Below are positions 38,717-53,955 of a DNA stretch of 64,000 nt, piece by piece. The stretch is from Pseudogymnoascus verrucosus. Its lineage: Eukaryota. The DNA lies in assembly GCA_001662655.1 (NCBI GenBank), contig KV460218.1; one strand, 5' to 3'. The notes beneath the pieces are model-generated. The model was given only the letters and a program-made list of their open reading frames with translations. It was not told the origin of the DNA and made no database searches. Each line of letters opens with the position of its first letter. Position 1 is the stretch's first letter. A program made the translations under genes and the position numbers.

Positions 38717-41692
38717 ATGTCAACCACTGAATCCAGTCGCTCCAGCGGCCGGAGTTCAAAAGAGCTGCGCTACTCGAGGGAAAATTTGCTCTTCTTGCGA
38801 GACCAATTGCCTGTAATCATTTGCGACGTGACAAAGATGAATAATACCAATGCTGGTACGTGTTCACGCCCATTCCATACCTACTCGCCATCCACAACCT
38901 ACTAACACTTCCTCCCCCTAGATTTGCTACGATTGCCATCACAAATAATGTCTGATACTGGCCTCAAGTCGTGCCCTACAAGGGTTTTGCGACGTGTTCC
39001 AAACTTCAAAAATAGAGACGATGTTGGTGGCTCTGAAAATAGTCGTCTTCATAGACACAAGATCTCCTTGGAGTCCGACGAAGAAGAGATTGTGTACCGT
39101 GGACATCCAATCCGCCACTCCCTCAAAGAAACACAATGGCAGTTCAAGCGTCGCGATGACTCTGATAGATCGAGCCAGCCTCTGTCCGCACCATCCGGAT
39201 ACCATGCGCAGAAGGCCGAAAACTTCCAGAAATTCTACCGTGCCGTTGTTTCGCCAACACACGTTCGAGTGACAGCTGGCGGCCGAATTGTTCCAAACAT
39301 TCGCGCCCCTCCGCAGCCTGTATTCGTCTGGAACCGCGACAAGTTCTTTTTCGAGGCGAAGCAAGACAAGAAGGCTGCAGGAGCCGTAGATGCAAACTGG
39401 CAAGAAGGTGCAGCTTTGAGACCCTCCGACCCAAACCAGTTGCCTATCAATAGCCCAACCACAAATCCGAACATTGCTACTGCTCCACCCTCCCACTCTT
39501 TAGAGAAACCATTGAACTCCGGCACTTTGCAGCCGTCGACAATTACTGAGCCACAGGCTCCAGATCCTGCCCCAACTCTTCCAAATATCTCGGACCAAAA
39601 CAGCTCGGCTGGCCCTTACCCGATCAAGCTGTCTCCGCCAGGCCAATTCGATATGACAAAGCCTTTCATGGTGAATGGGCAGATGGTTTACCCCCTCCCA
39701 TCGGACTTTCAAATCCCCCACGGCGTTCCCGTGATACCATTCAATATGCTTGGAAATACGATGCCTCTGCAGAATCTACAGCCTTCCCAATACCCTCAAA
39801 TGCCGCTTCATCACGGCTTATTCAACCCCATAGAGCCTTCTTTGGGCCAGGCGCAACCAATCCCCTATAACAACCCACTCACGACTGGTTTTGGAGGCAT
39901 GCCTGTTCCTCATTCAAAGATGGGAGACCGAAGTAGTAACAACAACAGACCAGTGACCATGCCGCCTCTACCTGGTCTTGACCACCCTCCATACAATCAG
40001 CCGGGGTACGTGAAACAAAAGATAAAATCGCTACAAGATGAGATCAAGAAGTTCGATCATCAGTTGGATCACAATAAGCACCAAATCGACGAAATACATG
40101 TCAAGAAGCAGCGTTTCTATGTTGAGAGTCAGATCCAAACTCTTGAAGCAAGCTTGGCCCTGCTTCCTTCAGAGGATTTCAATCACTTGTTTCCAGGAGC
40201 TCACCCTCGGCCTCTGGCACCACTCATCCCAAGTTGGGTCGCTACTCCAGTTTATCACTCGAGAAGTTTCGATGGAGTATATGACCAAGGACCGGTTCAC
40301 CAACCCGCGGCATCGAGGGCGATAAATCGATCCGAGCCATTCCATAATCCCACTCCAGTGCCTGCTTCCAAAGCTTCGGTCGCGAAATCTTCTCAGACGA
40401 GCCGAACGCGCCTGAGCCTCTCTGCGGCAAAGGCAGCCCCTTTTAAGCCTAGGTCTCAACAGGGTTCACAGCCTCCCGTTGTGCAGCCACGTACCGCACC
40501 GAGCGATGTGGGCGAAGCCAATAGCATCATACTGGACGAGACCACTAGTACCCCAGCAGAACATGGGCAAGATATAGAAAGCCGCCTGAAAGGCACAGGT
40601 AATGCATGGGCTGGGCCAAAGGGTGGAGGCAACCATCCTATGTCGTCAAACACTACATTGGTTGAAAAGACACCTACTCCGGAAGTTCTCGAAACCCAGA
40701 GCTACGAAGGACGTCATTTGATGCCAGCAGGACAACCTCGGGGCAATGGGTCTACTTCAGCCTCTGCGGATACTCGTACTTTGGTCTCGGCTTCTCATCA
40801 TACCCCGGGCATGCCTTATTTGATGGGATTTCCTCCGCCAGGAGTACCGTGGAAAGAGGCTCGATCTCACGAACTCATGTATACGAGACCTCTCACCCCG
40901 GAAGAAGTTCGTGCTCGACACTTGTACTGGGGAAATGCCAGCAAGGAATCCCAGAAGGGCCTACCAAAATTTGATGGGCAAGACTTTTATCCGCCATCCC
41001 CGCAGAAGGGATATGCTCTTCCAGTCGGCCAGGGTCGCTACAGTGAGGCATCAACGATTATTCGGAAGTCAAAGGATAGTAGTGCCACGTCCAAGGAACA
41101 GGGATTAGGTGAGGAGTCACAAGCTCTAGTTCTTCGAACAGAGGCAGTCGTGGGTGGGAGAACTTCGCCAGACAAGAATGTTGCCCTACACGACGACAAT
41201 GATGATGTGGTATCTGTTGACTCGTGGGGTGCTTCTAAGAGCGTGTGCTCCCCCCCACAGCATGCCTCGAAAGCTGCGGCGAAATTCAACAAGCAGTATA
41301 GCGCAACTACGTCGGCGTTTCTACTTGGGATGCTGAAGAACAGCCCAGCCGTTTCTTCACCACTTTCTGGGTTGTCATCAACTCATGCTGTAGGATGTCT
41401 TCCGAACTATGGCGGGACCGCAATTCCCTCGCTGGCTCCAGGACCAAGGCCAAGCTCATCGTTCACATTTGACGCCCCCAACACCAAGATTGTTCGGTCT
41501 GCTTCTGGCCTGTCGGTTCGACATGAAAATCGGCCGCCATCAAGGGCCGGGTCCGCTTCAGCGGGCGGGTATACTGCCGCCGAATTTCTAGCCAAAGTTA
41601 ACCGTCAAAATGAGGAACGCCAGGGCAACGCCGAGCCAGATTGGAAAACCGCGGCTAATGGAGTTGGGTCTGTTGCCAATTCGAGCTGGTAA
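38717..41692 (+). CDS. Large low-complexity hypothetical protein, 2 exons
   Basis: Exon 1 38717-38855, intron GTACGT..CTAAC..TAG to 38921, then a 922-aa frame with motif-like blocks FQKFYRAVVSPTHVRVTAGGRIVPN and ARHLYWG..GLPKFDGQDFYPPSP. Confidence 0.85.
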
Positions 41693-42847: not shown

Positions 42848-44681
42848 CTACGCCCTCTCCCCCCTCAACTCCTCCTCAACCTGCTTCACCACAATCTCCC
42901 TCACGCCCTCCCACCCCGCACCAGCAGGCACATCCGTAACCCTCCTCTCCTTCTCCTGGAGACCAACAAACTCCTCCGGCAGCACGCTCGAGAAATCGAA
43001 ATCTTTGTCCTTAAGCGCAACCTCCACCGCGCCCGCAAACTTTGCCGGATGCGCAGTCGCAAGCGAGATATGCGGCACCCCCTCCGCGCGAGCCATACTA
43101 CGCAGCGACGCGGCAATACCAACCGCAGAATGCGGATCGAGGACGTACTTCGCACTGTCGAAGAAATCGGCAATAGTAACCGTAGTCTGGGCGTCCGTCA
43201 CGCGCTCGCTGTCGAAATCGCGCTGCGCGAACTTGAGGATCTCGGTGTTGACGGAGAAGCCGCCCGCGGACTTGAGCTGCGCGTGCCATGCTGCGACTTC
43301 CTGTCCGGCTTGCTGCTTGGTCCACTCGTCGTCCATGCCGGCGCCGGAGGCGTACTCGTACGCGAGGAACCAGAGGAGACGCTCGAAGTTGGAGGAGACG
43401 AGGATGTCCATTGCTGGGCTGAGAGTCTCGCGGACACCATCGGTGTGGGCCTTTGCGCCGTCGACTGCGAGGCCTTCGGTCGCGGAGGGGGAGTGGGAGG
43501 GGTTCTTCTCGTAGGTGCCGGTGCGCCAGAAGCGGTCGAGGATGTCGTTCTCGTTGGTTGCGCAGACGAGCTTGTCGACGGGGAGACCCATGCGCTTGGC
43601 GAAGTAGCCGGCGAGGATGTCGCCGAAGTTGCCGGTGGGGACGACGAAGCGCGGCTTTGCGGAGGCGGGGAGGCGCTTTTGAAGAGAGAAGTAGGAGGCG
43701 AAGTAGTAGGTTGTTTGGGCGAGGATGCGGGCCCAGTTGATGGAGTTGACGGCGCCGAGCTTTTGGCTGGCGTTGGTGATGGGGTCGGCGAAGAGGGCTT
43801 TGACAGTGTCCTGGGGGTGGTGTTAGTGGGGCTAGGGAGGGGTAATGGGTGGGTGGGTGAGACATACTTGACAATCGTCAAAGGTGCCTTCGACGGCAAG
43901 GTTGTGGACGTTGGCGTCGAGGACGGTGGTCATCTGGGCCTCCTGGACTGGGCTGACGCGACCCTTGGGGTGCAGGATGAAGACGGAGACATCCTTCTTG
44001 CCGCGCAGACCGTAGATGGCGGCGGATCCGGTGTCGCCACTTGTCGCACCAACGACAGTGAGATGATGCCTGTCCTTTCCGGTCTTGCCCTCATTGCGCC
44101 TCACAAGGAAGTACTCAAACAGGTTTCCCAGTAATTGCAGCGCAACATCCTTAAACGCCCAGGTTGGGCCGTGGAATAATTCCAGCAGGTACAGGTTCTT
44201 CTCCTGGTCCAGCGGGACGAGCGGGGTGGTCTCTGGGGCGCGGAAGGTGGAGTAACTGCGATCGATGATCTCCTTCAGGTCGGCGGAGGGGATCTCAGAC
44301 GGCGAGATGTAGAGCGAGAGGATGGCGTGGGCGAGGTCGGCGAAGGAGAGGTCGCTCCAGGCGGACTCCCAGTCGGCGGGTAAAGAGGGAATCTCCTCTG
44401 GAATGAAGAGACCACCGTCGGATGCGAGGCCCTTGAGGACGACATCTTCAAAGGAGAGCTGTTCAAGAGAGAGTTTATCAGCCACTTGTTCAATCAATCA
44501 ATTTTTATCGAGACGTTAATTGGTGGCGTACGCTGTATTCCCCGCCGCGTGTGCTTAGGTAGCGCTGCGAGGGGGTGTGGCTGGCGATATTTGCTTTTTC
44601 TTGTGACGCCGCGTTCGCATTGGCGGCGGTGGCCAGCTTGGAGGGGACATCGCCCGTGAAATGGACAGCGCTGGGAGCCAT
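42848..44681 (-). CDS. THR4: Threonine synthase, 3 exons
   Basis: RYLSTRG, GLASDGGLFIP, ELFHGPTWAFKDVALQ (PLP Lys), GATSGDTGSAAI, VNSINWARI, LSPAMDILVSSNFER, ATAHPAKF. Confidence 0.96.
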
Positions 44682-46187: not shown

Positions 46188-48286
46188 ATGAGTTACGGTC
46201 GCAACTCCGCGCCAGATTTGATTCGCAACCCGGGCTTCCTTTACGTAGCCGGCGTGAAGCAGAAAAAGAGGAGGAGCGCCACTATCACATACCAATGTGA
46301 CTTTGGTGGAGACTGTCAGACGGCGGTCGCCAAGTCCACATATTTCTGTAATACTCGTACGTCGTCTTTGTAAATTAAATCTTCAGATATGCATGTGCAT
46401 TTCTGTTCTCCAATGCCAAGCTGACAATGACTGTGCTCCAAGATACCTGTACCGCCTTACAAGACCAAGCTCGGTGCTTCAACAAAGTGATACAAAGCGG
46501 GGCGACAAGATGTGTAGTCCGTGAGTGCGACGACTCCTCAGACGCCATGTTCGATTGATCGAAGAAGCCATCCCAAGCTATTCTTTGCAATCCATGGCTC
46601 TTAACTGCCCCAACGTCATAAATACTTACCCAGCATAGACTACCAATGCATAGTCAGTGGTTGCTTGGGGAAACGAGTAGTATCCCCTAATGACAGATGG
46701 TGGGACTGCTGCGAGCATCGTGAGTGAACACAATTTGAGAGCCGATAACGAGAACATGATAATAATCAATTCCCAGATAAATGCGACGCCGACGAATGCT
46801 ATTCTCTCAAAAAATTCAACGTCCAAACGGGGAGGCACTTCCTGTACTGCCCAAAGCGTAAGCTCCAACCAACGCCATCTACAACCAGTAGTCTCACATT
46901 ATTCTACAGACAAATGCGTGAGAGAAACATGCGAACGAAGTCACCCGACGACGCAACCCCACTGCATCACACGTATGTGCGAGCCTCTGCTTCAGCACAA
47001 TGATACTAACGACAACCAGACACTTGCTCCAAAGAAGTCTGCATTGGTATGGTAGAGGGCGACGAGAAACTATGTGCTCGCCGTGAGTGAACCCACCAAT
47101 TGAAAAGACAAAACCAAGTCTCACACATAAACAGATATAAGATGCTCTTACAGGAACTGCCCAAGCAACCGTATGCAAAAAGATGGAGAATACCAGAAAT
47201 TCTGCTCACGTCGTATGCCTCTCATCTTCTGACCCCCCTGAACCGCCACATAATCCTAACCAACCTTACAGACTCGTCATGCACAAGCTCTCCATGCACA
47301 AGAGAGAAGAAACTTGGCTCAGAGTTCTGTGACTTGCGTAAGCTCTCCCCTTCCCAGTCACGATATCGACTCTGACATTCCTAGACACCTGCCCCATGAG
47401 ATACTGTACCAAACGCTGCAGTGGCAACCACTTCTACTGCAGTGACCGTAAGCCTCCTCGCTCCCGTCAGCTACCCAAACCCCAGCTGACAATCCTAGAT
47501 ATCTGCGACCACGACGGATGTGGTTTTCCGCGAACATTCTACTTGGAAAGAGACAACGTCGTGCCCACCAATTACTGTCCCATCCGTACGTGTCACAAAA
47601 CCCTTCATGCCCCAATGGGAACTACAGCTAATACACTCCAGATGAGTGTCAAGAACCTAGTTGTCACCTCAACGCCCCCAGCCAAACATGTGGCTACTGC
47701 AGAGCACGTATGTAGCCCTCTGAACCCGTCAAATTCTCTATTAACAAGCCCCAGATAACTGCGACGAACCAAACTGTAATGGCCTCAAACTGATCAATCC
47801 CGGCGGCAAAGCACCCCTCACCAAGTGCCTAACGCGTAAGCCACCTCCCGCACCCTTCTTCCTTTCCCCTTCACCCAATCTAACAACCCACCAGACTACA
47901 ACGAATTCCGCGACCGTTCTCGACGTCCCCGCTCGCCCCCCACCGCTCCGCCCCCAGCTCCCCCAGCTCCCCCAGCTCCCCCTCCAACCCCCCCATCCCC
48001 CGCCATAACCCTCACAACCCTCTCCTCCCAAGTCTCCAGGCTCCAACGCACAGCCAACAGCATACAAGAAATCGCCCTCAACAGCCGCAGCGCCAGAGCC
48101 GGGGCCGCAGGCGACGCACGGGCAGCGTCCGCGGAGGAGGCGGCGGTGGCGGCAGCGGCGGAGGCGGAGAGGAGGTTGGAGGAAGTGTCCAGGGAGCAGA
48201 GGTTGGTGGCGGATGGTATTAGTCAGCAGGATGCGAAGATTAATGCTATTTTGAATATTTTGAGGGAGAGGAGGCGGTATGGGTGA
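46188..48286 (+). CDS. 13-exon protein (~455 aa) with 12 tandem CCCH-type (C-x4(-8)-C-xn-C-x2-H) zinc-finger-like modules, a Pro-rich linker and a coiled-coil C-terminus
   Basis: Exons 46188-46356, 46443-46520, 46639-46719, 46777-46857, 46910-46972, 47020-47082, 47135-47212, 47272-47337, 47385-47447, 47499-47585, 47642-47707, 47755-47835, 47895-48286. All introns are GT..AG. The joined CDS is 1368 nt with no internal stop. Confidence 0.9.
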
Positions 48287-48691
48287 CAGTTTTAAAAAGG
48301 GGGGGGGGGGGTGCCAGGGGAGACTATGGGAGTAATGTAAGACTGATGTACGAAGGGATTAGGGAATGGGGGAGATATGTTGGAGGAGAGATACCTGGGG
48401 GAGATGTCGAGGGGCTTGTTACCTTGGAAGCTGATGGGGGTGTATTCTTTGTGATGATTATGATGGATAATGTAGCTTAGTGTAATTTGGAGTTAGTAGA
48501 TATGCAACTGTTAGGCACGGGTCCAGTCCAATATTCAGTTCAGCAATCACATGTTCGCTCCAGTTTAGAATTAAGTGTGGAAATCGTATTCATTGCTATC
48601 AGTGATGCTACAGCCATATCCGACCATAGTCCATCGCAAACCACGCATTCCGACTCCCAACCCCGACCCGAAAGCCCATCCCAAACAACAT

Positions 48692-49434
48692 TTACTTGAG
48701 GGGAATGAAACGGGAAGAGTGGGTGGCACCAATACCGGGGCGACCGTGCTTGACTGGGTGGCTGTTTTAACTGGTTAGTCACTGTTCCCAACCGCATCTC
48801 CCAAAAATGGTTGAAGGTAAAACTTACTAAGAGATAGAGAACTCGGCGAGGTAGTGACCGACCATTTCCGGCTTGATCTCGACCTGGTTGAACTCCTTTC
48901 CGGAGTAGATACCGATGACCGAGCCGATCATCTCTGGGACGACAATCATGTTACGCAGGTGCGTCTTGACGAGGTCTGGCTTCTCGTTGGGCTTGGCCTC
49001 CTGCTTAGCCTTACGGAGCTTCTTGATCAGACCCATGGGCTTGCGCTTGAGTCCGCGGTTGAAGCGGCGACGAGCGCGCGCATGGACGATGTCGCGCAGC
49101 TGGTCCGAAGAGAGGTCGAGCAGTCTGTGAACGAGGGTTAGCTAGGGGCTCCCCTTTGTGTTCTGGACGTGCCGTGTGACATGTGTGTATGTGTATGGGT
49201 ATAATGGGGACATGAAGAATTCGGGTTTCATGGGTGTGGGAGGTCGTACTGCTCGAGGTCTACGCCACGGTAGGAGAACTTGCGGAACGCTCTCTTCTTC
49301 TTGATCTCGGCAGCCTCAGCTGCGTTCTGTGCGCGAAAGACATGGTCAGTTTGGGGTTCCCATTTGGAATAATCGCGCTCAATTGAGAGGCATTGGGGAG
49401 GTAGGCGGGCACTCACGTATTCGTCGTCAGCCAT
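48692..49434 (-). CDS. RPS15: 40S ribosomal protein S15 (uS19), 4 exons
   Basis: [31 protein letters not shown]|..[49 protein letters not shown]. Confidence 0.97.
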
Positions 49435-50988: not shown

Positions 50989-51999
50989 ATGCCGCCGGTA
51001 TGCCATGCTCCCTAACTTCAGAACGTTATCACAACTACTCCCTCGATGGCAACTGACTTCGTGCAGATCGGAGATCTCCTCGCGCAGATAAGTGGCGACC
51101 AGCCAAAGCCATCGACCACCTCTGCGTTTGTCGCGCCGCTAAAGCGCAAAGCCGACGGCGACCTGCCACGCCACAGCGATAAATCCTCCCGAAATGAGTA
51201 TCCCGCGACCGCCTCACCAAGAGTCGCTACACCAGCGCAAAGGGCTTCAGGAACACCATCGTCGATGTCCAGGCCTGTTCGCCCCCTCCCAGGTCGCTCG
51301 TCGGCCTCCACAACTCCAGTCACGAAGTCGACCAGTGCCCCACCCGGCTCCGCGCCCTCTCAAATCAGCACAGCCAAAGTTCCAAAGAAGGGCTCCTTCG
51401 CCGAGATCATGGCTCGCGCAAAGGCAGCGCAAACGAGCATGACTCAGGTTGGAAAGATCCAGCACAAACGCATCGAGAAGGGTCCAACCAAACGGGAGCG
51501 CGAGGAGATGAAGTCGACCAGCAAGGGCGCAACCGGCAAAGCAAAAAGGAAAGGCCCAACACCACCACTTCGCGACGGCCGCAATGGTGCAAGAGAGAAT
51601 GGGAGAGGCTCCAGAACAACTTCGGCCGAGGCAGAGAAGAGACCAAAGAAGGCGGCTGCTGCTACCACAGGTTACACGGGTACAGCTCGGCCAAACCCAG
51701 CCGCAGCCAAGAAGCCACAGCCATCTTATGGAAGTTCTGGCCGAGATCGGGATCGCCCAAGCCCAGGCCCTTCGCGAGCTCGGTATACATACGCCGCCAG
51801 CGAGGACGAGGAGGATTACGAATCTGACGTTTCGTCTGACATGGAAGCAGCCGCCTACGAAGTCGACGAAGAGGAGGAGAGGGCTGCCAGATATGCTCGC
51901 AAGGAGGACGCCTTGGCCCTGGCTGAGGAGAACAGACTGAGGATGGAGAAGGAGGAGAAGCGGAAAAAATTGGCTGCCATGGCCAGAAATAGACGCTGA
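50989..51999 (+). CDS. SPT2: SPT2 chromatin protein
   Basis: MPP|IGDLLAQISG (intron GTATGC..CTGAC..CAG), GSFAEIMARAK, C-terminal SDMEAAAYEVDEEEERAARYARKED. Confidence 0.85.
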
Positions 52000-52824: not shown

Positions 52825-53955
52825 CTACATAACAGCGCAGATGCTCTCATCGTCATCTTCCTCTTCATCATCCTCAGGAAAATCACTCTTGGGGACCTTG
52901 CAGACCTTGCAGAAGCAACTGTAGCCAAACAGCTTTGTGCACTTGGCAGCTTTCTCGCCATGGCGAATAGGGCCACAGTGCATGTCGTTGTGGTAGCTGA
53001 TGGTAAGCTCCTCGTCTCTCTTCACGTCCTTCGTGGTGATCAGGAACATCTTGAATGGAGGTGCCTCGTTGATTTCCACCATGCAGTTGGGGTCAGCCGA
53101 GTGGTTGAGGCGCGAGGCGTCCTGGTAAATTCCGTAGAGGGGCTCACGGATGCCAATGCACTCAGCATCATCACTGATCTTGAAACGATTGGTGACATAC
53201 TGTCTCAAGACAACATTCTTGAAACCGGACAGCGGGTCTTCGGCGCTGACGTAATGGAGATGCTCTGGAAGCTTGAACGACTTGTTGGCAATCAGCTTAT
53301 TGATGCTGAGGCGGCTGTTGCGTGTGAACAAACGAGTGGAAAAGTCCTGGGCTTCTCTCATTCTGTTATAGGCTTCATCATCTGGGGGTGAAAGCATCAG
53401 GACTCGGGCCATGACCTGACTACTGAATCCTTCCATGTCATTGGCACTCGTGTAGAAAATCGGAGTCTCAGCAATGATGACAGAGTTGACTGGCAGATCC
53501 ATGGCAGCAACAACCTTGTATTGGTTATTCTCCATCATCTTGATTCTGTAGCGGATACGATAGCGCTGATCGACCCTAATATTGACTGTAAAGTAGTTAG
53601 CACATGAATTGCAAGTAGCAATAATATGGAGCACATACAAGGGAGGTTGTCCACATAAGCCGTCAAATCGATGTCTCGGGGGTCCATAACCTCTCCAAGA
53701 GTCGGGTCAGGACGGGGAATCGGCTTGGGCTCCTCTTCACCTTTGGCCTCCTTTTCAAGCCTAGCCATCTCACGAAGTTGGTCATGATAATCGCTTGGCA
53801 CACGTGGCAAGTTCTAAGGACCAGGGGTTAATTTATGCATAATGAACATCCCTTGGGTGACCTACGGCGACTTCCTGGTTAATGGAGCGAATGGGTCTGG
53901 GCTGAATGGGCTTGGGGCGATGAAGGCCCAGCTTTTCAGTGAACTTCACACCCAT
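52825..53955 (-). CDS. SET-domain lysine methyltransferase-like protein, 3 exons, C-terminal CAVM
   Basis: MGVKFTEK..QEVA|NLPRVP..DNLPF|NIRVDQ; VVAAMDLP...IIAETP, SRLNHSADPN, DEELTISY, post-SET FGYSCFCKVC. Confidence 0.85.

Follow-up and report, generated by a model that had tools for sequence, protein, structure and literature searches.

A putative CCCH-type zinc module array of Pseudogymnoascus verrucosus with one module per exon and every intron in a histidine codon

A stretch of 64,000 nucleotides from contig KV460218.1 (assembly GCA_001662655.1) of Pseudogymnoascus verrucosus, a fungus of the class Leotiomycetes, order Thelebolales, carries on its plus strand, at positions 46188 to 48286, a gene of 13 exons and 12 introns that codes for 12 tandem modules built around cysteine and histidine residues; we refer to the whole stretch as the window and give all positions in it. 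The gene, deposited as VE01_03774, is of a known kind, an array of zinc modules of the three-cysteine, one-histidine (CCCH) type, with an unusually regular structure in which each module has its own exon and each intron splits the codon of the histidine that closes a module. The explanation that we prefer, and that we hold to be rather probable as a whole, is that VE01_03774 is a real and conserved gene of 13 exons and 455 amino acids, that its modules would each hold one zinc ion in a rigid rod, that the array would have arisen by ancient exon duplication, and that the product would act as a nuclear adaptor.

The gene model was built by locating by script 12 modules quoted in an earlier note on this DNA and joining the exons by coordinate. 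That note had proposed that removal of 12 canonical introns leaves a stop-free protein of 455 residues, and splicing by coordinate reproduces this product: the coding sequence is 1368 nucleotides long, with 455 codons and a single stop at the end. The open reading frame track had been described as fragmentary at the locus, and a listing of stop-to-stop frames between 45900 and 48600 agrees, with no long frame staying open across it. All of the introns run from GT to AG, with donors GTAAGC (four introns), GTGAGT (three), GTACGT (two), GTATGT (two), and GTATGC (one) and acceptors CAG (eight), TAG (three), and AAG (intron 1). The plus strand of the region has 13 sites that fit the donor consensus GT[AG][ACT]G[TC], and 12 of them are the intron donors. 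A branch-like motif under the loose pattern NTRAY lies 13 to 38 nucleotides upstream of the acceptor in 10 of the 12 introns and was not found under that pattern in introns 4 and 6; in intron 12, CTAAC lies 15 nucleotides upstream of the true acceptor. Three choices of acceptor for exon 13 keep the frame. The one giving 455 residues starts the exon at 47895, and it is the same acceptor that is used in the deposited protein and in the spliced contig of run X1 described below.

Each of the 12 introns is in phase 1, and the earlier claim that every junction falls after the first base of CAC or CAT (C/AY, with the slash marking the junction) applies to all 12, each encoding the histidine at the end of a module (residues 57, 83, 110, 137, 158, 179, 205, 227, 248, 277, 299, and 326). 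These are 12 of the 19 histidines in the protein, which also has 39 cysteines among its 455 residues. A module consists of C-x4-C followed, after 10 to 18 residues, by C-x2-H; the C-x4-C spacing that had been described holds for 10 of the 12 modules, the exceptions being module 1 (x5) and module 2 (x8). There is one module per exon, with the exon of module 1 also carrying the N-terminus, and modules 1 to 12 follow each other in tandem with just 1 or 2 residues between the histidine of one and the first cysteine of the next. An intron in phase 1 thus lies at every module boundary, and all 11 internal exons (63 to 87 nucleotides) are multiples of three, as expected of an exon-per-module gene. 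With an assumed phase 1 frequency of 0.3, the chance of 12 successive phase 1 introns is about 5e-7. The uniform phase 1 pattern is beyond chance, and the same reading recurs in the independently annotated protein and in orthologues.

The earlier note took the gene to be hidden, and in this respect it was mistaken, as the last exon matches one database protein at 100% identity, the 402-residue hypothetical protein VE01_03774 of P. verrucosus (here P0001), so that the gene is already annotated with 10 of its 12 modules. The suspicion of automatic mis-modeling raised in the same note proved justified: letter for letter, P0001 is the 455-residue model minus exons 2 and 3, with exon 1 joined to exon 4, and in many models of orthologues the breaks likewise fall between modules. 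Module 2 with all of its ligands is present in other Pseudogymnoascus models (P0006, P0009, and P0011) and also in Sordariales, and module 3 with all of its ligands is present in P0002, P0004, P0006, P0009, and P0011. Because homologous modules with a complete set of ligands are found in other Pseudogymnoascus models, exons 2 and 3 are, on this comparison, genuine coding exons.

Evidence of splicing comes from a 200-nucleotide contig of run X1, about 93% identical to the locus, which covers 47755 to 47835 and then 47895 to 48011. The contig is transcript-like and from a related strain, and it is classed as RNA by the guess of the tool. It omits exactly the 59 nucleotides from 47836 to 47894, which run from GT to AG, with 81 nucleotides on the shorter side, so that intron 12 is removed. 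It starts at 47755 with an unplaced overhang of 11 nucleotides, which we read as the last 11 nucleotides of exon 11 apart from a single mismatch that changes Arg to Ser, the same difference as in the orthologue P0002. Because the overhang matches the end of exon 11, it also supports the removal of intron 11. Of the 12 junctions at which a check against RNA had been suggested, those of introns 11 and 12 are covered by this contig, and no RNA evidence was found at the other 10. That the gene is transcribed in a related strain, with its two 3'-most introns removed, is part of the joint explanation given above and shares its probability. Among the four runs in which the locus was found, none is recorded as RNA; X2, X3, and X4 retain introns across it and appear to be DNA from this strain or related ones. 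We note two differences in length among these contigs. Those of X1 and X2 both lack 9 nucleotides at 47951, in the Pro-rich linker of exon 13, corresponding to one Pro-Ala-Pro unit and to a length polymorphism among strains, and there are small indels relative to the X2 and X4 contigs at 48284 to 48330, near a homopolymer of some 13 G that lies just past the stop, in the 3' untranslated region.

Relatives of the protein are numerous, and the cysteines and histidines are what they share. With the zinc region as query, a word-based search returned 13 proteins, every one of them from Pseudogymnoascus and many partial or garbled, and a profile of six Pseudogymnoascus proteins compared with 1.84 billion representative proteins found 168 at E values of ≤1e-3, 38 at ≤1e-10, and 6 at ≤1e-30. 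In an alignment of 64 sequences, the columns that are at least 90% conserved are the initial methionine and 26 cysteines and histidines, and the consensus throughout is C-x2-H-x-C-x4-C...C-x2-H. Loss of the Cys and His residues among orthologues, which the earlier note had named as grounds for giving up its proposal, is thus not seen. Thirty clusters were looked up and 16 of them have organism names, from the genera Sordaria, Cladorrhinum, Rhypophila, Lasiosphaeria, Cephalotrichum, Coniochaeta, Lomentospora, Eutypa, Hypoxylon, Durotheca, Monosporascus, Pseudomassariella, and Seiridium, together with one Xylariomycetidae species; going by the genera, we take all 16 to be Sordariomycetes, the lineage having been looked up for Lasiosphaeria only. 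Orthologues from Neurospora (among them N. crassa B19C19.090), Podospora, Triangularia, Madurella, and others were added by another search. The relatives with organism names are from Leotiomycetes and Sordariomycetes only, and where protein names are given they are all "hypothetical" or "uncharacterized." Literature searches by locus tags, Pfam accessions, and exon-per-finger wording found nothing on this family, and scans of metagenome contigs with two queries (a profile and P0016) found no relative.

More distant matches, which are metagenome or fungal proteins, join the module array to other domains, including a prokaryotic N-terminal methylation motif (P0046, with >20 modules), an endonuclease/exonuclease/phosphatase domain and MORN repeats (P0033), a methyltransferase domain (P0059), and a helix-turn-helix and a trypsin-like peptidase domain (P0124); because of these combinations the module is, as far as sequence matches tell, more widespread than the fungal gene. 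In the bat pathogen Pseudogymnoascus destructans, the protein GMDG_06082 (P0012) has 281 residues and about 3 to 4 modules, with a repetitive tail rich in Gly, Glu, Trp, and Arg that is unlike those of relatives, reflecting either mis-modeling or gene decay.

Errors in the deposited protein models of Sordariales point to introns at the homologous positions. When an intron of the form C/GT..AG/AY is read through, the histidine becomes Arg (CGT), and where the end of the intron is in frame an Asp (GAY) appears; at the P. verrucosus locus, Arg is what the frame encodes when it is continued through any of the 12 donors. At boundary 5/6, P0162 (Lasiosphaeria miniovina) has an in-frame insertion of 23 codons relative to its sister species protein P0030, with Arg first and Asp last in place of the histidine, which is the expected product of a retained intron of this kind. 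At boundary 3/4 in P0019 and boundary 11/12 in P0017, the histidine is replaced by Arg and the downstream alignment is lost, and P0203 (N. hispaniola) has Arg for His on entry (boundary 3/4) and Asp for His on re-entry (boundary 6/7). Module 4 is precisely absent (boundaries 3/4 and 4/5) from P0021, P0207 (N. tetrasperma), and P0208 (N. crassa), and at boundary 10/11 P0207 and P0208 have lost 6 residues right after the histidine. Like Arg-for-His breaks are seen in several Pseudogymnoascus models and fragments. Introns are thus apparently present at 6 of the 12 homologous boundaries in Sordariales, and the exon-per-module layout is apparently common to two fungal classes. Compared with N. intermedia and N. 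tetraspora, P0208 (N. crassa B19C19.090) and P0207 lack module 4 and parts of modules 1 to 2, 6, and 11. Because the breaks fall on module boundaries, these two models are probably wrong and their gaps are probably not real differences between the genes. Judging from the proteins, annotation of this gene fails repeatedly, with errors on module boundaries in many deposited models.

The array shows the marks of age. Between modules of the protein, identity is 25.6% overall and 9.4% without the Cys and His residues, bearing out the statement of the earlier note that only the ligands are conserved from one module to another. Similarity of DNA has a mean of 0.556 among exon units, compared with 0.530 for shuffled sequences, and of 0.548 among introns, compared with 0.496, with no family of alike units, and nothing in these sequences points to a recent duplication. 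Sordariales orthologues have an equal number of modules and share residues specific to single modules, namely VEG in module 6, EY..FC in module 7, and PR...C-P-[IL]-H in module 10. With the ligands masked, in-register pairing of modules 2 to 12 beats random permutations in all four comparisons, and the number of permutations (of 20000) that reach the in-register score is 520 for P0201, 95 for P0015, 28 for P0023, and 3 for P0016; two further proteins whose parsed module number differed were left out. Because the units barely exceed shuffled controls and the modules are collinear across relatives, the duplication must be ancient. We propose, with moderate confidence, that a single symmetric phase 1-1 exon was duplicated in tandem to give the array before Leotiomycetes and Sordariomycetes separated and, with confidence that is likewise moderate, that the introns would have been kept in place since. 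The suggestion in the earlier note that the protein was built by exon duplication is thus in keeping with the uniform phase and position of the introns, and it fails for any recent event, in view of the low DNA similarity among units and the collinearity of modules with Sordariomycete-type relatives.

We regard the module as related to the C-xn-C-xn-C-x2-H group and as unclassified within it: it would work like the members of that group but lies, by threshold, outside every curated family. Translations of single exons have no meaningful Pfam match, the best of the CCCH type being zf-CCCH_10 with exon 5 alone (E value, 0.043; 13.8 bits against a cut-off of 27). Pfam scans covered 140 relatives, 64 at E values of ≤1 (with details for 42) and 76 more distant ones at ≤1e-4. 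Matches among the 64 are to zf-TRM13_CCCH (five), zf-C3Hc3H (three), WRC (two), Zf_WRKY19 (one), and EsV_1_7_cys (one), and among the 76 to zf-TRM13_CCCH (five) and zf-C3Hc3H (one). The five zf-TRM13_CCCH matches in the distant set score 22.6 to 34.2 bits, above the cut-off of 20.9 by summed score and with no separately significant stretch, and across all 140 relatives only P0044 passes for zf-C3Hc3H (29.2 bits against 27), with P0075 (17.6) and P0104 (25.8) below; the matches to both models cover the part of the profile ending in C-x2-H. P0001 and its orthologues match neither zf-TRM13_CCCH (PF11722) nor zf-C3Hc3H (PF13891), and P0001 has no match to WRC (PF08879), EsV-1-7 (PF19114), or Zf_WRKY19 (PF24906). 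For WRC, the first spacing is wrong, no WRC tripeptide is seen in the modules, and the best relative (E value, 6e-5) reaches 23.1 bits against a cut-off of 28.6; for EsV-1-7 and Zf_WRKY19, the relatives P0025 and P0060 score 17.5 bits against 25 and 20.5 bits against 27, respectively. The EsV-1-7 motif is reportedly C-x4-C-x16-C-x2-H, of which C-x4-C and C-x2-H are present here and the x16 loop occurs in just 2 of the 12 modules. Classical tandem CCCH fingers have the spacing C-x7-8-C-x5-C-x3-H, and the modules, with C-x4/5/8-C-x10-18-C-x2-H, are not of that type.

Clusters in the Atlas give a similar picture, the nearest being an Ascomycota cluster labeled "hypothetical" (score, 0.90), followed by one auto-named NFX1-type zinc finger-containing protein (feature score, 0.84; template modeling [TM] score, 0.47). 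Rows with low structural scores include Zf_WRKY19 (TM, 0.23 to 0.29), EsV-1-7, and TRM13-CCCH, with no WRKY19 or EsV-1-7 row above 0.29, and a search limited to named clusters gave no usable feature match. The likeness to WRC and WRKY19-like CCCH modules that had been pointed out earlier thus persists in weak matches of relatives and in these Atlas leads, all below thresholds, and is absent from P0001 itself; the Pfam scan that had been recommended accordingly returns weak zinc-module matches in relatives only.

An AlphaFold2 model of P0001 made with 64 aligned sequences has a mean predicted local distance difference test score of 83, with means of 89 to 97 for 10-residue blocks over residues 61 to 260. 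A beta state is predicted after 9 of the 10 ligand histidines, pairing nine residues on and enclosing C-x4-C, together with short helical turns at C-x2-H in two modules and an extra hairpin in module 10. The tail of P0001 is predicted to form two long helices (residues 312 to 340 and 348 to 400), and the tail-less orthologue P0002 gives a similar model. The N-terminal KQKKRR, poly-Pro segment, and coiled-coil tail described in the earlier note can all be recognized, as a basic patch, a Pro-rich linker, and a predicted helical tail. The top rows in Foldseek, which are not significant, are LIM and TRAF6 zinc arrays, and in the VIA-wide comparison of the full model only the C-terminal helices were matched, with Z up to 8.6, below the level that the tool takes as meaningful for helical hairpins.

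In the explanation that we prefer, each module would bind one Zn2+ through its three cysteines and the junction histidine, for which the pattern and the precedent of the plant WRC domain give fair confidence. A short beta-bridged knuckle, as modeled, would hold the first two cysteines, and a helical turn would hold C-x2-H. Because neighboring modules are so closely spaced, they would, with fair confidence too, form a rigid beaded rod, in which the variable loops would be the binding surface. Because KQKKRR lies near the N-terminus and WRC provides a precedent, we weakly suggest that the protein may be a nuclear adaptor that binds nucleic acid or chromatin; this and the possibility that the Pseudogymnoascus protein would oligomerize through its C-terminal helices are the least certain steps.

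We note, however, a number of observations that weigh against this explanation. Zinc binding is read from the pattern and from precedent, P0001 matches no Pfam family at E values of ≤10, and a PDB sequence search with the profile gave no match at ≤10. Foldseek returned nothing significant for the zinc array (best E values of 0.42 with the full P0001 model and 0.85 with P0002), and the VIA-wide comparison of P0002 found none of 48161 chains at Z of ≥2; these null fold searches are no evidence for a new fold. The array has 36 Lys and Arg and 29 Asp and Glu and is thus mildly basic, unlike typical DNA binders, which together with the difference in tails between the classes speaks against a nuclear adaptor: the helical tail is confined to Pseudogymnoascus, and Sordariales orthologues have long, acidic, low-complexity tails. 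Transcript support extends to 2 of the 12 junctions (introns 11 and 12) and is from a relative, not P. verrucosus, with the RNA status of X1 a guess, and the conservation of introns in Sordariales is deduced from errors in protein models and not from DNA. In the test of collinearity, just 2 to 5 of 11 modules have their cognate as the best match.

Several of these observations fit a role of the array as a protein-protein scaffold, for example as a subunit of a chromatin or RNA-processing complex, without direct contact with nucleic acid. Such a role is nearly as likely as that of a nucleic-acid or chromatin adaptor, and as an explanation of its own we regard it as a tentative possibility. It agrees with the near-neutral charge of the array, with the predicted rigid rod and its variable loops, and with the acidic low-complexity tails of Sordariales, and the insignificant top rows in Foldseek, LIM and TRAF6, are protein-binding zinc arrays. 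The weak zf-C3Hc3H matches of relatives, of which that of P0044 is above its cut-off, point in the same direction, as KANSL2 and INO80D are zf-C3Hc3H proteins in chromatin or RNA-processing complexes. WRC, however, the closest tested analogue by pattern, binds DNA. The place of the zinc site itself could also differ, with C-x2-H of one module joined to C-x4-C of the next in an NFX1-like register, so that a site spans exons and the introns cut it in the middle. The stretch C-x2-H-x(1-2)-C-x4-C is as regular as the spacing within modules, and a nearby Atlas cluster is the one auto-named NFX1-type, but the predicted beta bridge encloses C-x4-C as a knuckle of its own, with C-x2-H on a helical turn. 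Moreover, C-x5-C of module 1 has no C-x2-H before it and the last histidine has no Cys pair after it, WRC uses the within-module register, and zf-NF-X1 is not among the Pfam matches listed; we consider this register doubtful.

The symmetry of the exons raises the question of alternative splicing. As cassette exons they would give isoforms with differing sets of modules, and the 402-residue form would be one that the fungus really makes. As the length of every one of the 11 internal exons is divisible by three and all junctions are C/AY, skipping keeps the frame and rebuilds the histidine codon; the deposited model does skip exons 2 and 3 in frame, the AAG acceptor of intron 1 is weak, and models of relatives are without single whole modules. 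We nonetheless think this unlikely, as no transcript shows skipping and the sole spliced contig joins adjacent exons, the skipped forms are from automatic prediction and differ between sister species, which suggests errors, and the modules are individually conserved and collinear. A splice-programmable zinc rod, in which exon dropping tunes the number and identity of modules and the introns have been placed since before the split of the classes, is improbable too, and if true it would explain the persistence of introns in an intron-poor lineage. Least probable by far are disulfide-bonded extracellular modules and a decaying pseudogene or prediction artifact. The protein is rich in cysteine, and the prokaryotic N-terminal methylation motif of P0046 suggests export, but the N-terminus is polar and basic, with no hydrophobic stretch that we would read as a signal peptide, and a nearly invariant histidine stands beside every three cysteines. 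A pseudogene or artifact is hard to reconcile with a frame that stays open through all 13 exons and is shared by two classes and with the existence of a spliced transcript-like contig.

The coordinates of the gene and of its neighbors in the window are collected in Table 1; no functional cluster is seen among the neighbors of the array gene.

Table 1. Exons and introns of the array gene and neighboring features in the window (lengths in nucleotides [nt])
Feature	Position	Strand	Remarks
Exon 1	46188..46356	+	ATG, basic patch KQKKRR, module 1 (C-x5-C-x10-C-x2), first C of His codon; identical to N-terminus of P0001
Intron 1	46357..46442	+	86 nt, GTACGT..AAG, phase 1 in His codon; CTGAC 22 nt before acceptor; donor used by deposited model, which jumps to exon 4
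Exon 2	46443..46520	+	78 nt, module 2 (C-x8-C-x11-C-x2); missing in deposited 402-residue model
Intron 2	46521..46638	+	118 nt, GTGAGT..TAG, phase 1
Exon 3	46639..46719	+	81 nt, module 3; missing in deposited model
Intron 3	46720..46776	+	57 nt, GTGAGT..CAG, phase 1; homologous boundary with Arg for His in P0019 and P0203
Exon 4	46777..46857	+	81 nt, module 4; exactly this module missing in P0021, P0207, and P0208
Intron 4	46858..46909	+	52 nt, GTAAGC..CAG, phase 1
Exon 5	46910..46972	+	63 nt, module 5
Intron 5	46973..47019	+	47 nt, GTATGT..CAG, phase 1; homologous boundary with Arg-to-Asp insertion in P0162
Exon 6	47020..47082	+	63 nt, module 6 (VEG module; VEG kept in relatives)
Intron 6	47083..47134	+	52 nt, GTGAGT..CAG, phase 1; Asp for His at boundary in P0203
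Exon 7	47135..47212	+	78 nt, module 7
Intron 7	47213..47271	+	59 nt, GTATGC..CAG, phase 1
Exon 8	47272..47337	+	66 nt, module 8
Intron 8	47338..47384	+	47 nt, GTAAGC..TAG, phase 1
Exon 9	47385..47447	+	63 nt, module 9
Intron 9	47448..47498	+	51 nt, GTAAGC..TAG, phase 1
Exon 10	47499..47585	+	87 nt, module 10, longest loop (x18); predicted extra beta-hairpin
Intron 10	47586..47641	+	56 nt, GTACGT..CAG, phase 1; P0207 and P0208 lack 6 residues just past this His
Exon 11	47642..47707	+	66 nt, module 11
Intron 11	47708..47754	+	47 nt, GTATGT..CAG, phase 1; X1 contig overhang; Arg for His in P0017
Exon 12	47755..47835	+	81 nt, module 12
Intron 12	47836..47894	+	59 nt, GTAAGC..CAG, phase 1; precisely skipped by X1 contig
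Exon 13	47895..48286	+	Last two bases of final His codon, Pro-rich linker, two long predicted helices, stop
928-residue open frame	38906-41692	+	No Pfam match at E value of ≤0.001
Threonine synthase	42848-44497	-	In two frames, so probably has an intron
Ribosomal protein uS19	48827-49141	-	
SPT2-domain protein	51016-51999	+	
SET-domain protein	52825-53706	-	

VE01_03774 and its relatives, including the N. crassa orthologue B19C19.090, form an uncharacterized family in filamentous ascomycetes, built of putative CCCH zinc modules in tandem and covered by no Pfam model. One symmetric exon repeated twelve times, with all of the introns in the same ligand codon and a layout that is probably common to two classes, bears both on exon duplication and on the persistence of fungal introns. 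The failure of annotation is systematic, as many deposited models, those from P. verrucosus, N. crassa, and N. tetrasperma among them, skip runs of 63- to 87-nucleotide exons or read through them, and a corrected model could spread via protein-to-genome alignment.

The WRC domain of plant GRF transcription factors shares with these modules a CCCH ligand set that ends in C-x2-H after a loop of about 10 residues. WRC (CX9CX10CX2H) is reported to bind one Zn per domain with nanomolar affinity and to fold in dependence on Zn, with little regular secondary structure, a beta-hairpin at its start, and Zn-dependent DNA binding (10.1101/2025.01.03.631214). WRC has C-x9-C, a conserved Trp-Arg-Cys motif, a strongly basic surface, and a single copy per protein, whereas the array here is mildly basic, with C-x4-C in 10 of 12 modules and 12 copies placed head to tail. 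The curated models most often reached by relatives are zf-TRM13_CCCH and zf-C3Hc3H; TRM13 has one such finger beside a methyltransferase domain, not an array. Closer in arrangement are the EsV-1-7 repeats, which are likewise short, tandem, and Cys-rich, with C-x4-C and C-x2-H. Found in Ectocarpus IMM and giant-virus proteins, they are proposed in two reports as a new zinc finger class, and the proteins that carry them have no further domains and a biochemical function described as unknown (10.1101/2024.02.19.579948; 10.64898/2026.04.27.720984). According to one of the two, EsV-1-7 proteins do not occur in animals or land plants and are mostly rare beyond brown algae and their viruses. In the sources covered, which did not include the founding paper, EsV-1-7 was nowhere found to be described with one repeat per exon and a split His codon. 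One zinc finger per exon is also the arrangement of WT1, a vertebrate gene with four classical C2H2 fingers, and both are tandem arrays; the gene described here differs in being from a filamentous fungus, in having 12 CCCH modules, and in having all of its introns in the same phase within the same ligand codon.

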